Source of the DNA: Squalus acanthias
Taxonomy: Eukaryota
Length of the DNA stretch: 64,000 bases
Assembly (NCBI GenBank): GCA_030390025.1
Contig: CM059426.1
Location: 138,508,001-138,572,000, forward strand
Reading direction: 5' to 3'
A program made the translations under genes and the position numbers. The notes under the pieces are model-generated. The model worked only from the letters and a program-made list of their open reading frames with translations. It had not been told where the DNA came from and did not search any database. Shown here piece by piece: positions 26,263-33,484 of this stretch (positions within the stretch are counted from its first letter, which is position 1; every line of letters starts with the position of its first letter).

Positions 26263-27144
26263 TAATAATAATGAATAATACTTCTTTTTATAGCATCTTG
26301 ATATATTGAAACATCCCAAAGCACTTCACACAATGAATTAATTTTGAAGTGCAGTGGCTGTTATAAAGGTAAACGTTCTTTGGTCTTGTCGTGCACCATA
26401 CCCTGGCTGAGAGAATGGACCAAGAAACTGTGCCCAAGCCTCTTACCAGTGTTGCTCTGTATCCAGCTACTAGGAGGTGTGAAAGTGCTCTGGTCTCTCA
26501 TTCCCTGTGACTTCCTATTTCTACAATGTTGCAGCTCTCAAAGGGTTAAGCCCTAAGAAGTTTAAAAAGGTAAGTGTAAGCCATGGCTCGCTGGTTGCAT
26601 TCTTGCATCTGTTGTGGATTCAAGTCCCACTCCAGAGACTGAGCACAAACTCTAGACTGACAGTCCGGCTGAATCTTGACAGGGACAGACTGTGTAGGCG
26701 GCAGGGCGGAGTTTCTGGCGGGAAACCTGGAAGTTCGGGTTTTCCCGCATGCAGTGGAATTTTGACACTACAGCGTGCGTAGTTTTGCTTTGACAGGTTC
26801 CCCACATGGAGGTCAGCCTGATTGACAGGCTTGGCTTCCAGTTGGATGGGAAGCACTCCAGAGGATACCGCAGCCGCAGGTAAGACGCCTGCTGCCAATG
26901 TTCCCTCTAATTTTTGTTTGTACTGAGCGGCCCACGAACTCCTCTGAGCCCAACTTTTTGGTCCATGGGAAAATTGTACAACAACAAAACAACAACAACA
27001 ACTTAGAGCATATATACAACAATGCAAGTAAATAAGGTTAATATTTATTCAACATTAATTACAGTTACATCATGATGGAATTTTCCCCGTCTGTATTTCT
27101 CTGTTTTCCAGTGATGGAAAATTCTGTCACGGTTGACAATCCAC

Positions 27145-29605
27145 CTCTCCTCTAACAGGTCACATTCTACCTCTCCTCACACGTCCCATTCTACCTCTCC
27201 TCACATCCCATTCTACCTCTCCTCACACGTCCCATTCTACCTCTCCTCACATCCCATTCTACCTCTCCTCACACATCCCATTCTACCTCTCCTCACACGT
27301 CCCATTCTACCTCTCCTCTAACAGGTCACATTCTTCCTCTCCTCACACATCCCATTCTACCTCTCCTCACACATCCCATTCTACCTCTCCACTCACTGTC
27401 CCATTCTACCTCTCCTCACATCCCATTCTACCTCTCCTCACACATCCCATTCTACCTCTCCTCACACATCCCATTCTACCTCTCCTCACATCCCATTCTA
27501 CCTCTCCTCACACATCCCATTCTACCTCTCCTCACTGTCCCATTCTACCTCTCCTCACACATCCTATTCTACCTCTCCTCACACATCCCATTCTACCTCT
27601 CCTCACTGTCCCATTCTACTTCTCCTCACACATCCCATTCTACCTCTCCTCACACATCCCATTCTACCTCTCCTCACACGTCCCATTCTACCTCTCCTCA
27701 CACGTCCCATTCTACCTCTCCTCACACACCCCATTCTACCTCTCCTCACACATCCCATTCTACCTCTCCTCACACATCCCATTCTACCTTTCCTCACTGT
27801 CCCATTCTACTTCTCCTCACACATCCCATTCTACCTCTCCTCACACATCCCATTCTACCTCTCCTCACTGTTCCATTCTACCTCTCCTCACTGTCCCATT
27901 CTACCTCTCCTCACTGTCCCATTCTACCTCTCCTCACACGTCCCATTCTACCTCTCCTCACACACCCCATTCTACCTCTCCTCACACACCCCATTCTACC
28001 TCTCCTCACACGTCCCATTCTACCTCTCCTCACACATCCCATTCTACCTCTCCTCACACGTCCCATTCTACCTCTCCTCTCACTGTCCCATTCTACCTCT
28101 CCTCTCACTTCCCATTCTACCTCTCCTCACACATCCCATTCTACCTCTCCTCACACATCCCATTCTACCTCTCCTCACACATCCCATTCTACCTCTCCTC
28201 ACACATCCCATTCTACCTCTCCTCACACATCCCATTCTACCTCTCCTCTCACTGTCCCATTCTACCTCTCCTCACACATCCCATTCTACCTCTCCTCACA
28301 CATCCCATTCTACCTCTCCTCTCACTGTCCCATTCTACCTCTCCTCTCACATCCCATTCTACCTCTCCTCACACACATCCCATTCTACCTCTCCTCACAC
28401 ATCCCATTCCACCTCTACTCACACATCCCATTCTACCTCTCCTCTCACATCCCATTCTACCTCTCCTCTCACATCCCATTCTACCTCTCCTCTCACTGTC
28501 CCTTTCTACCTCTCCTCACACATCCCATTCTACCTCTCCTCACACATCCCATTCTACCTCTCCTCACACATCCCATTCCACCTCTCCTCACACGTCCCAT
28601 TCCACCTCTCCTCTCACATCCCATTCTACCTCTCCTCTCACTGTCCCATTCTACCTCTCCTCTCACACCCCATTCTACCTCTCCTCTCACATCCCATTCT
28701 ACCTCTCCTCTCACATCCCATTCTACCTCTCCTCTCACATATCATTCTACCTCTCCTCACACATCCCATTCTACCTCTCCTCACACATCCCATTCTACCT
28801 CTCTTCTCACTGTCCCATTCTACCTCTCCTCACACATCCCATTCTACCTCTCCTCACACATCCCATTCTACCTCTCCTCACACTGGACCCATTCTACCTC
28901 TCCTCACACATCCCATTCTACCTCTCCACTCACTGTCCCATTCTACCTCTCCTCACACTGGACCCATTCTACCTCTCCTCACACATCCCATTCTACCTCT
29001 CCTCACACATCCCATTCTACCTCTCCACTCACACATCCCATTCTACCTCTCCTCACACATCTCATTCTACCTCTCCTCTCACACATCCCATTCTACCTCT
29101 CCTCACACATCCCATTCCACCTCTCCTCTCACATCTCATTCTACCTCTCCTCACACATCCCATTCTACCTCTCCTCACACATCTCATTCTATCTCTCCTC
29201 ACACATCCCATTCTACCTCTCCTCACACATCTCATTCTATCTCTCCTCACACATCCCATTCTACCTCTCCTCACACGTCCCATTCTACCTCTCCTCTCAC
29301 TGTCCCATTCTACCTCTCCACTCACTGTCCCATTCTACCTCTCCGCTCACTGGTCCCATTCTACCTCTCCTCACACATCTCATTCTACCTCTCATCACAC
29401 ATCCCATTCTACCTCTCCTCACACATCCCATTCTACCTCTCCTCACACATCCCATTCTACCTCTCCACTCACTGTCCCATTCTACCTCTCCGCTCACTGG
29501 TCTCATTCTACCTCTATTCACACATCCCATTCTACCTCTCCTCACACATCCCATTCTACCTCTCTGCTCACTGGTCCCATTCTACCTCTACTCACACATC
29601 TCACA
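27145..29605. repeat. Minisatellite of about 2.45 kb, 22-26-bp units with consensus cccattctacctctcctcacacat
   Basis: Roughly 100 directly visible tandem units with variant spacers. Confidence 0.97.
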
Positions 29606-30649
29606 CCTGGTCTGTTAGCCCCTCTTTCCCAACACAAGAGCTCACACTTTCAGGAGAGTAGATGAAATGCGAAAGAGCTGGGAGGATACACGCACCTTGA
29701 AAGTCTGGGCTTAGATCATAAACAACCTTAAAAATCCATTCATCTTGCCAAACAGTGAAATGAAACTCACATAATCTGGTCTCTCATCCATTATCCATTA
29801 ACCTAGACAACTTCAATTAACCTGCGGTTGCCAGGTGGTATATGTGGCTCAGTCAATGCTAAAGGTATTGGCCATGCTTCACATAAATGATCAATAACCC
29901 AATCTGCATCATAAACTTGCCCGTCAGAAAGCATTAGGTGCTCATTGAGAATGAGACTAAATCCATTTATCAACTTCACCCCAGATTATGTTTATCTGGC
30001 CAGGATGGGCTGTGCCCACTGGTTTTGTTACCTTTAGTTGTTATGGGCCTTTCTGGGCAATTCAGCTCAAGCTTGAGTCCTGGGGCATTGAGAGCTGCTG
30101 AAAGGGGAGCATTCCCAAGTCTCGCTCTAACCCAGGGCTGTCAACCAGATGTTCCGCGGGCCCGATCATCAGGGGCTGATTGGGAACTTAAAACGGCCCT
30201 GGAAAATATTCTGAAAGTGGCCCATGTCACCCATCCAATAGTAGTCTTATAACCTCATTTTCAGTAACCCTAATCCTACTTGCTCAGTTATTGTTATGGT
30301 CATTTGCAGACAAATTACAAAGAACTGACGATTTTATAGTAGTTTTATGAAATGTATTTGTAAATAGTGCTGACTGTACAATTGCATGCACTGCTTATTT
30401 ACAAAGCAACTAAAACATTAAACAAAAATAGCACCATACACATACACCAAAGTGAAAATCAGTATGTATGACATTATCTGAAAATAATAACAATACAATT
30501 GTCAGGTTATTGCAGATACAGCTCCTTGCACTATGAACTTTTCAATGATACACTATCAATGATTGCATCAGGGTCTATATGATGTAAAATGTTGTAACAG
30601 ATGAAATCATTGTTTTAAACAAAGATGGGTGCATCCGACTGTACAATAC

Positions 30650-30955
30650 TAACCCTCTGAGATATCTGTGCTCCTGCAACTCTGGCCTCTTGCGCAACCC
30701 CGATTTTAATCGCTCCACCACTGGTGGCTGTGCCTTCAGCTGCCTAGGCCCTTAAGCTCTGGGATTCCCTCCCTAAACCTCTCCGCATCTCTACCTCCTT
30801 TAAGATGCTCCTTAAGCCCTAACTCTTTGACCAAGCTCTGCTCTGATGTCTCCTTATGTGGCTCGGTGTCAAATTGTGTTTGGTAACGCTCCTGTGAAGC
30901 GCCCTGGGACATTTTACTATGTTGAAGGCGCTATATAAATACAACTTGTTGTTGT
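30650..30955 (+). mobile_element. L2 LINE 3' end
   Basis: gtgaagcgccctgggacatttt...ggcgctatataaatac followed by ttgttgttg. Similar to 57110-57395. Confidence 0.78.
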
Positions 30956-31184
30956 AGGCACTGTTGTATTGTAGGCAAACTACACTTCAAAAGTAATCAA
31001 CAAATTTTCACCATTCAGCACAGAAGCAAACCTTAGAATTGATCGCTGTTCAGGGCTGGCCTAACAAAAAAAGATGACACCTGCCCTACAGTCACACAGC
31101 AGACGGTTGGTTACCTGCACTGGTTCTGACTTCAGGGACTAGGCCTCGGTCGCATTCAATGCCATTAACTCGAGGCAAGCGGTC

Positions 31185-31300
31185 GCCTGTCGCTAGGAGA
31201 CGAGTTTTATGAGTGCCGGAAGTGCGTATCGCGGAGGGGGTCCGGATCCTGGCCCCACCCCTGGCTGTCAGTGTGTGAGGGAGAGGCGGGCGGGGCAGTG
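31185..31300. promoter_or_regulatory. CpG-rich promoter-like segment inside the hAT cargo
   Basis: ETS/GABP motif CCGGAAGTG (31216-31224), X-box-like GTCGCTAGGAGAC (31189-31201), GC box near 31285-31296, local CpG enrichment. Confidence 0.5.
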
Positions 31301-31333
31301 AGTCTGCTTCTACTAACGGATGGCTTGTTTATA

Positions 31334-31569
31334 GTGGACAAAATTGAGAGGTCGCACAACACCAGGTTATAGTCCAACAGTTTTATTTGAAATCACAAGC
31401 TTTCGGAGTTATCACTCCTTCCTCAGGTGAAGTAAATTCACCTGAGGAAGGAGTGATAACTCCGAAAGCTTGTGATTTCAAATAAAACTGTTGGACTATA
31501 ACCTGGTGTTGTGCGACCTCTCAATTTTGTCCACCCCAGTCCAACACCGGCATCTCCGCATCATGACCA
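31334..31569 (+). mobile_element. Penelope-like palindromic insertion with hammerhead ribozyme motif
   Basis: Perfect 98-bp inverted arms (31334-31431 and 31437-31534), 14-bp TSD cttgtttatagtgg (31324-31337 and 31570-31583). Confidence 0.82.
31438..31475 (+). ncRNA. Minimal type I hammerhead ribozyme (identical copy on the minus strand in the left arm)
   Basis: TCAC-CTGAGGA-A-GGAG(tgataa)CTCC-GAAA-GCTT-GTGA: conserved core, stem II, palindromic stem III, stem I. Confidence 0.75.
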
Positions 31570-31723
31570 CTTGTTTATAGTGGCCCAGTCCCGCACTTGG
31601 GCAAAGAGTGGCTGCTGAGTGTGCAGCAGGATCTCAGCACCGGGTAGGAGAGAAGCGGGAGACACGGCAGGCTGTGTGCGGGAGAATCGGGCCCAGGGTT
31701 AGAATCAGGGCCTGGGACTCTCC

Positions 31724-31786
31724 TTCCAGACCCTTGACGGGACTGGACATGTAGTAATCAGCAGTGACAATCCTCGCTGCAAACAT
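31724..31786 (-). pseudogene. REV3L: Captured fragment of the REV3L (DNA polymerase zeta catalytic subunit) first coding exon
   Basis: MFAARIVTADYYMSSPVKGLE versus recalled vertebrate REV3L N-terminus MFSVRIVTADYYMASPLQGLD. Similarity stops after codon 21 and no further REV3L exons were seen. Confidence 0.85.
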
Positions 31787-33484
31787 ACTGACCCGATCAT
31801 AATGTTGTATTTTAAAAGGAGATGGGGGAAGAAGGAAATAAAAACACCAATACACACTTGCCCATCCACTCCCCTCCCCCCCGCCAAAAAAAATTAAATG
31901 CTAACTGTCTACGTAGTGAATATTAGTGAGGTGTCTTTGCTGGTCAGGCTGAGCTGACGGTGTTATTTGATACAGATGATGATGAGGAGGCGGTGGCTGT
32001 GGGCCCGTGCAATGCCTGTACCCATGTTGCTCTCTCCCTGCCCCTCCTGCTGTAACTGCCTCCAGCCGCCTCTCTCACACACATTACACCAGTTAGCGCC
32101 CACCCCACTCTCCCTAAATCACCGCCTCACCACTAAACGTCGCTCTTAATACGGCCACTATATATTGTTGTTTTGGTTTTTATAAAGACACTCCGATTCT
32201 TTCCCCCCTCTCGCTCAGAGCCCCACCCCCTCACTCACTTTTGCCGGCTCCACTATTACTAACAGTCACTAAGGGGTGAAGCGTTTGCTCGCTGCTCCTC
32301 CATTCGCAGGCTGAGCTGCACTTTTTCCCACTCTCTTTGGCAGCTGGTTTTTGATCTCCGCCCCTCCTCCCCCCTTCCCCCACCCACCCCCCCCCCCACC
32401 CCCCATGCTCCAGCTCACTGTTGTGTGCGGCCTGTGTATTTCAGTGCGCGGGACCTTACAGATTGCTGCGCGGCCGCGGGAACACTGTCTGCTGCTACTA
32501 GTCGGAGCGTGGGGCGAGGATGTCCAATTCCCGACCCCGGGGGAGGTCCGATCCCCGACCCCGGGAGAGGTCCGATCCCCGACCCTGGGGTCCAATCCCT
32601 GACCCAGAGTGGGTGGATGTATGGGGGGGATCTGATTGGGGGGAAACTTGGGGGTCAGGGGTGAAGCCCTTACCTTCTCCCTGAAGCTGTCCTCGCCTCA
32701 CTTCAGCTGCCGGGTTTCCTGAGGCCTGGGAAACCCGGCCGGTCAGGGTTAAACCTGCAAAGCAGGTTAAATCAGAGGCTTCCAGCCTCATGAAAATATT
32801 TAATTGATCAACCTGCTGCCCACCCCTTGTCCCAACTCCATTAAACCCGCAAGTGGGCAGGTTGCAGGTGGGTTAGGGTCGGGTTTGAGATTTTTAAAGT
32901 CTTAACATTTCACCCGACCCCAACCCATCCTTTTTTGGGGGTTAAGATACAGCCTTCTAGTACTGATGGGAGTGCTGCACTGTTGGAGGTGCCGTCTTTT
33001 GGATGAGAAGTTAAACCGAGGCCCCGTCTGCCCTCTCAGGTGGACGTAAAAGATCCCATGGCGCTATTTCGAAGAAGAGCGGGGGAGTTATCCCTGGTGT
33101 CCTGGCCAATATTCATCCCTCAACCAACACATTATCACATTGCTGTTTGTGGGAGCTTGCTGTGTGCAAATTGGCTGCATCATTTCCTACATTACAACAG
33201 TGACTACACTTCAAAAGTACTTAATTGGGTGTAAAGAATTTTAGGACATCCCTTGGTCATGAAAGGCACTATATAAATGCAATCTTTCTTTCTTTTATTA
33301 TCCATGAACAGGTAAATCTACCCAAGTCATAAGCAAAGGTGCAAAATAAAATTCCTGTGGAGTGAAATCACACTGTATAATATTAGTATATGAACACTAA
33401 ACCTGTTTGTGTGAAATTCATTAGTCCACTATTTTAATGGAGATAATTTGGATTTTTTTAAATGACTGAATACCTCTGTTAAAA

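Follow-up and report, generated by a model that had tools for sequence, protein, structure and literature searches.

The window considered in this study comprises 64,000 nucleotides of Squalus acanthias DNA (C2:138508001-138572000). It includes exons of the ALPK1 gene, which lies on the minus strand and was recognised by PDB search matches (E 5.6e-22 and 6.3e-8), together with a transposable element of 5,592 bp that occupies the ALPK1 intron between the exons near 34.7-34.9 kb and 23.2 kb; PDB searches with two other reading frames of the window gave nothing useful. The left terminus of the element (CAATGTTCCCTCTAA) starts at position 26896 and the right terminus (GGGAACACTG) ends at position 32487, and the two are flanked by an 8-bp target site duplication (TSD), cctgctgc on the left (26888..26895, plus strand) and tctgctgc on the right (32488..32495, plus strand), identical at 7 of 8 positions. 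The right terminal inverted repeat (TIR) of the window copy is shortened and is without the ACCTTAGA-like stretch seen in sister copies. A preliminary description of this DNA had given the same termini, flanking repeat and ALPK1 intron and had read the element as a Pack-hAT, that is, a hAT-type element without transposase that carries captured host gene DNA. This reading holds, with one family at many loci, distinct 8-bp TSDs and cargo parents that have no TIRs, and the single stop-free frame of at least 90 amino acids outside low-complexity sequence in the element (104 amino acids) had no Pfam match. On balance, we lean towards the view that the element is a dead copy from a multicopy non-autonomous hAT family with two host pieces, one of which, from REV3L, was acquired by a jump of CR1 reverse transcriptase onto REV3L RNA and then spread by the hAT. 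The description had also pointed to a sister of the host repeat as the empty site; this sister (~12.4-12.9 kb) does align with both flanks of the element, but since it is ~75% identical and has 3 additional bases at the site, it would represent the empty site only approximately.

The genome was searched with both ends of the element, which gave 40 matches for one end (40 of 630 candidates scored) and 48 for the other (40 of 306 scored). An exact 20-base left-end pattern matched the genome 2,170 times, against 0 matches for the reversed control, and many of these sites are probably short miniature inverted-repeat transposable elements. From the stretches fetched, both ends were placed for 26 elements of 0.6-10.6 kb, with one pairing to an internal right TIR excluded and one right end moved by one base. 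These 26 elements have a TIR of 15 bp in common. TSDs matching at 7 or more of the 8 positions were found in 18 of the 26, all 18 being different, versus 1 of 650 control cross-pairs, and TSDs matching at 6 or more positions in 21 of the 26 versus 10 of 650; two elements added later have TSDs of 7/8 and 6/8. Between family copies the homology ends at the TIRs, and the TSDs are distinct. An autonomous-type member at C7:31391662-31400335 holds a broken hAT transposase and has its left end in common with the window element, and broken transposase copies lie directly inside the same left end at several further loci. Because the TSD pairing stands above the control and the transposase copies lie inside the same left end, both ends of the window element belong to one dispersed non-autonomous hAT family, and not to two unrelated hAT families, a possibility raised in the preliminary description.

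The transposase piece of the C7 member (280 amino acids) is DUF4371/ZNF862-like and has 46-51% identity over ~96% of its length to 11 proteins, the named ones being teleost transposases (~50% identical); most of the 11 contain DUF4371 and one contains PF05699. The family resembles the DUF4371 (ZNF862-like) hAT transposases in this identity, in the 8-bp TSD and in the short TIR, and is unlike them in that no intact transposase was found among 64 matches, none of which, apart from the query, covers the 280-residue piece without stops or breaks. As far as searched, the family transposase is thus extinct. An autonomous partner was also sought through PF05699, and the 30 loci fetched from 150 matches belong to other hAT families. 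At C1:214139434-214140935, whose left end is degenerate, and at C12:44153879-44158668, CTTGGCTC directly follows the right TIR.

The smallest common form of the family is a core of 1.4-1.5 kb, consisting of the left end, a minisatellite, block A and the right end. In the window copy the left TIR and subterminal region (26896..27138, minus strand) correspond to the 3' end of the transposase-coding element and are 80% identical to the first 254 bp of the C7 member. The minisatellite (27143..29600), already recorded in the preliminary description, has a 24-bp unit and is expanded here to 101.7 copies; most family members carry short or long arrays of this unit, and the 24/26-bp minisatellite of the core has independently expanded to more than 40 copies in at least five elements. 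Block A (29601..30168) is part of the core and is not present in the autonomous copy, and no parent of it without TIRs was recognised among 40 scored of 60 and 40 scored of 52 candidates. An autonomous-type hAT exchanged its transposase for the minisatellite and block A, giving rise to the core. The core right end with its shortened right TIR occupies 32287..32487 (minus strand).

Most of the remaining interior is nested transposon DNA and not host gene. The segment 30169..30653 (minus strand, TIR CAGGGGCGGATTGGG) is one end of a second hAT family, of which a complete free copy of 2.13 kb with a perfect 8-bp TSD lies at C15:34046793 and other copies extend into the C-terminal part of a transposase (weak PF05699 match, E 0.006). 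The preliminary description had noted an exon-like block, and this label had to be abandoned, the block being at least in part the second hAT end, preceded by block A. The second hAT inserted after block A and its far end was deleted in the Pack lineage; the window copy retains 481 bp of it and a 16-bp remnant (32271..32286), which marks the original insertion point of the REV3L cassette. The second hAT end at 30169..30653 is followed by a 5'-truncated 3' end of a long interspersed nuclear element (LINE) with a (TTG)n tail (30654..30962, plus strand), which from its tail sequence and reading frame we take to be L2-like. A palindromic insertion with a 14-bp TSD (31338..31569) came later and interrupts the first of the two host pieces, here called cargo C.

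The second host piece is the REV3L cargo (31726..32270, minus strand, 545 bp), which consists of the 5' untranslated region (UTR) and the first ~20 codons, with the ATG at 31786 and without splice donor or core promoter. The start of REV3L reported in the preliminary description is thus present as regards the ATG and the match to the Pfam domain REV3_N (weak in the window cargo, E 0.004, residues 1-18; 47.8 bits, above the cut-off, in the parent exon), while the cargo is limited to the UTR and these codons. The parent at C9:120379265 is an intact exon of 46 codons with a splice donor; it is single-copy and no family end adjoins it, an isolated TIR match lying ~5.5 kb away. A search within 7.7 kb detected no motifs of REV3L exon 2, and a PDB search with exon 1 gave nothing useful. 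All six candidates from the REV3L query were scored, and they comprise the parent, the window copy and further elements on C10 and, at two loci, on C4. The cargo therefore occurs in 4 elements on 3 contigs, three of them complete with different TSDs (CCTGCTGC, ATCATAAG and ATTCAGTA) and one partial, which is the outcome that the preliminary description had proposed to look for. The cargo is 74% identical to the parent by BLAST, and since three REV3L copies share differences from the parent at 72 of 460 columns, REV3L was captured once and then spread, the copies having presumably been moved by cut-and-paste with the family transposase acting in trans. The C10 element holds two REV3L copies. 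At C10:67855505-67865126, through an internal tandem duplication, a REV3L copy adjoins a further left-end segment, giving two REV3L pieces within one TSD.

How the REV3L piece entered can be read from sister elements. Six cassette-free copies show the empty cassette target, ...GGAA(A/C)T(C/A)GAT-TGA-AAGGGG or close to it. In the C10 copy (67.86 Mb), the tail of a LINE that we take, from its tail sequence and reading frame, to be CR1 begins after GGAAATCGAT, REV3L ends before AAGGGG, and 3 target bases are lost; the order is left half-target, CR1 tail, ~290 bp of CR1 3' end, an AT-rich linker of 35-40 bp, REV3L from codon 36 back to the 5' UTR, and right half-target. The CR1 break and the linker are common to the C10 and C4:81.88 Mb copies, and C10 shows both target junctions. 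CR1 and REV3L lie on one strand in the same sense, with the cellular sequence 5' of the LINE 3' end, and the cassette has no flanking direct repeat, the 3-base target loss standing in its place. The CR1 3' end, linker and REV3L 5' part sit at one point of the nested hAT. The cargo contains no intron, and its start lies ~100 nt downstream of the closest of five CCAAT boxes, so that the CCAAT/GC-box cluster and the REV3L core promoter were left behind. Coupling of the REV3L capture to a CR1 insertion is, on these junctions, well supported, and the cassette would have formed in a single CR1 insertion, with RNA rather than DNA as the probable template of the REV3L piece. The REV3L-carrying copies at different loci with different TSDs would then be products of later hAT spread.

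Cargo C (30969..31725), a CpG island with ETS-like and GC-box motifs, is ~520 bp long and was copied from the single-copy locus C4:45413150-45413983, from which it differs by 8.7% at non-CpG positions; the preliminary description was right to regard this second CpG-rich block as host cargo. A query with the block returned five candidates, all scored (5/5): the C4 parent, the window and three more elements, one of them complete. The TSDs recorded for elements with cargo C are CCTGCTGC and CTGTGGGA, and no family end lies within 30 kb around C4:45413150. Since the copies agree against the parent at 20 of 369 columns, cargo C too was captured once and then spread. Cargo C comes after the tail of the LINE fragment described above, which is common to the C-carrying elements (85-87%; 87% for this insertion in one sister element and 85% in another) and distinct from the LINE beside the parent locus (77%). 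At the parent, a short interspersed nuclear element (SINE) with a similar tail adjoins the CpG island, and the simplest reading would be a template switch that used the homology of this SINE tail and the LINE tail in the element to join cargo C. The parent island (C4:45413339-45413700) contains four tandem copies of a 71-bp unit with the ETS-like motif and GC box, and the captured copies hold one.

Several points weigh against loading of REV3L through CR1 and against the order of events given here. The window copy itself has no CR1, and the cassette is read from two sister elements. The REV3L cargo is a single exon, from which no intron had to be spliced out, and the linker is AT-rich without being a clean poly(A). 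The REV3L start site is deduced from motifs (CCAAT spacing), so that an RNA template is likely rather than proven. The REV3L 5' UTR differs from the parent by 23-30%, versus 4-11 of ~60 coding bases, which is not fully explained. The event order would follow from shared junctions, the tree of block B having no supported branch (0 of 12). No gene was identified at the C4 parent by Pfam (199 repeat-free frames from 30 kb, only sub-threshold matches), by Rfam (0 matches in 4 loci) or by eye in the part of the frames from a further 40 kb that was inspected. Lastly, the combination of cargo C with REV3L occurs once in the assembly.

A rival reading is a classic capture at the DNA level, in which REV3L was copied by fork stalling or gap filling with template switching, the mechanism put forward for multicopy Pack-TIRs, and CR1 landed later or supplied the patched break, a possibility that we hold to be rather unlikely. 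It would account for the absence of a spliced junction; CR1 insertions are common within the family elements, cargo C looks DNA-templated, joined at a repeat tail, and the nature of both cargoes, GC-rich 5' or CpG-island DNA, is that described for multicopy Pack-TIRs in the main text of PMC8277862. However, a separate CR1 would have to land no more than ~40 bp from the cargo edge, share its sense and cost the target only 3 bases in total, and the cargo ends just short of the CCAAT/GC-box cluster.

In the window copy, cargo C is joined to REV3L at about codon 20 and CR1 is gone, and a further deletion or copy-in event would have brought the two cargoes together. The preliminary description held that the cargo moved here as one transposed unit; arrival of both cargoes as one unit is likely, and because the mosaic is single-copy it stays short of proof. 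The right end of the window copy has a one-base deletion mark in common with both C-cargo copies (2/2) and with none of the other 14 aligned, and is without a mark common to the 2 complete REV3L copies, each mark being a single site. Two histories would fit: a sister element supplied the REV3L tract by copy-in, or a window-like ancestor gave rise to the two C2 copies by deletion. In the first case the element that entered ALPK1 may have carried cargo C only, with REV3L copied in on site from a sister during gap repair, so that the cargoes never travelled together. We consider this doubtful, although the single-copy mosaic and both marks agree with it: the same marks, one site each, fit a window-like ancestor whose two C2 descendants lost REV3L, cargo C and the right end are both more complete in the window copy than in these two, and the mosaic junction is already present in a related organism.

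The evidence from reads is as follows. A second study of the same organism provided a DNA run with two relevant contigs, one covering 31683-32356 with 4 differences and the other passing through the right TSD. A contig of the related organism B crosses the C-REV3L junction at ~96% identity and without the palindromic insertion, and organism C holds cargo C at ~96% identity; none of the relatives' contigs listed ties their copies to ALPK1. Because the C-REV3L junction is present in organism B, the mosaic is real and older than the split of these species. Segmental duplication, chance pairing of unrelated ends or misassembly is largely refuted and highly improbable: the right TIR is indeed shortened and the listed read contigs cover internal and right junctions, none the whole element, but copy homology ends at the TIRs with distinct TSDs, the parents have no family ends, and three internal or right junctions are bridged in the second study and one in a related species.

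The window copy bears signs of age. Parental CpG has become TG or CA at 12 of 23 sites in REV3L and 10 of 29 in cargo C, while the reverse holds at 3 of 14 and 2 of 19; the loss runs one way, from parent to copy, as expected for methylated dead copies. Truncation and the loss of CpGs make it probable that the cargo is methylated and has no function, and the copy is old and probably silent. Among the runs recorded as RNA, none was listed as containing this stretch, and one presumed RNA run had no listed piece over either cargo and is uninformative on expression. The REV3L piece and ALPK1 have the same orientation, but nothing suggests an effect of the element on this gene.

In metazoans, Tan et al. 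2021 assigned 208 of 370 Pack-TIR cases to the hAT superfamily, with screening criteria of at least 90% identity, one unique parent and removal of retroduplicates; four multicopy Pack-TIRs were reported in 100 animal genomes, nearly all cases being single-copy, and the frog Pack-hAT-N8_XT carries a 5' UTR and occurs at several loci with distinct TSDs (PMC8277862). The word 'shark' is absent from the main text of that paper (PMC8277862). The shark family resembles metazoan Pack-TIRs in having host DNA (>100 bp) between TIR ends, a TIR-free parent, hAT ends and distinct TSDs at several loci, and is unlike them in being older (REV3L 74% to parent), in the two-chromosome cargo of one copy, in the nested second hAT and in being seemingly LINE-loaded (PMC8277862). 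Like plant Pack-MULE, Pack-CACTA and Pack-hAT elements, it is non-autonomous with constant ends, variable interiors and multi-locus fragments (PMC8903248, PMC6379663), and multi-locus cargo is common in plant Pack-TYPE elements (PMC8903248). In the route proposed for Pack-CACTA, two neighbouring insertions flank the captured DNA (PMC8903248, PMC6379663); unlike this, the shark C4 parent has no family end in 30 kb, and capture coincides with retrotransposon insertions. LINE template-switch chimeric retrocopies have the same shape, a cellular copy and a LINE 3' end running in one sense and inserted as a unit, whereas the shark cassette lies inside a DNA transposon, was probably multiplied by it, and has a 3-base loss and no direct repeat (PMC2104539). 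A 2026 plant review, in the parts consulted, treats template switching under long terminal repeat elements only (PMC13317346). In the literature searched, which mostly excluded subscription papers and the PMC8277862 supplements, no shark Pack-TIR and no LINE-loaded DNA transposon was found.

It is not settled how TIR transposons take up host DNA, and multicopy vertebrate cases are rare (PMC8277862, main text). Vertebrate Pack-TIRs as such are known; what would be new is that this family was probably retro-loaded, nests a second hAT and unites cargo from two chromosomes in one copy. The family preserves the core, the core with the nested hAT, the empty and filled target of the REV3L cassette, and the two-cargo mosaic, and the order of capture can therefore be read from these intermediates. 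We give about even chances to a broader view, in which two engines worked in relay: CR1 copied the 5' end of a host mRNA into a DNA transposon by reverse transcription, after which the hAT ends multiplied it, nested further elements and merged it with the C4 CpG island, giving a plant-style multi-gene Pack by an RNA route that Pack-TIR screens filter out. If REV3L did come through CR1, some cases of 'DNA transposon capture' would be retro-loading and would be missed by screens that exclude retro-copies.

Other family elements were also inspected. Pfam searches on 74 unique frames from them detected no host domain, and protein-like unique open frames without Pfam match lie in the elements at C4:81.88 Mb (L072:2259-2516) and C4:106.5 Mb (L116:5283-5546). 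A third lineage, 'X' (C8:73.35 Mb and relatives), was considered as a second CR1 chimera and rejected, as a separate repeat present in many copies forms its ends; among 440 candidates there was no homolog of its longest frame, and the lineage is not counted as host cargo. A nested repeat at L174:1490-3240, with relatives on C7, C8, C1 and C3, combines ends that occur in many copies with a 1.2-kb interior present at only about five sites, and this repeat family could itself carry cargo. A separate hAT family, represented for example at C5:73156778, has many near-identical matches with open frames of ~650 amino acids and looks young or recently active.

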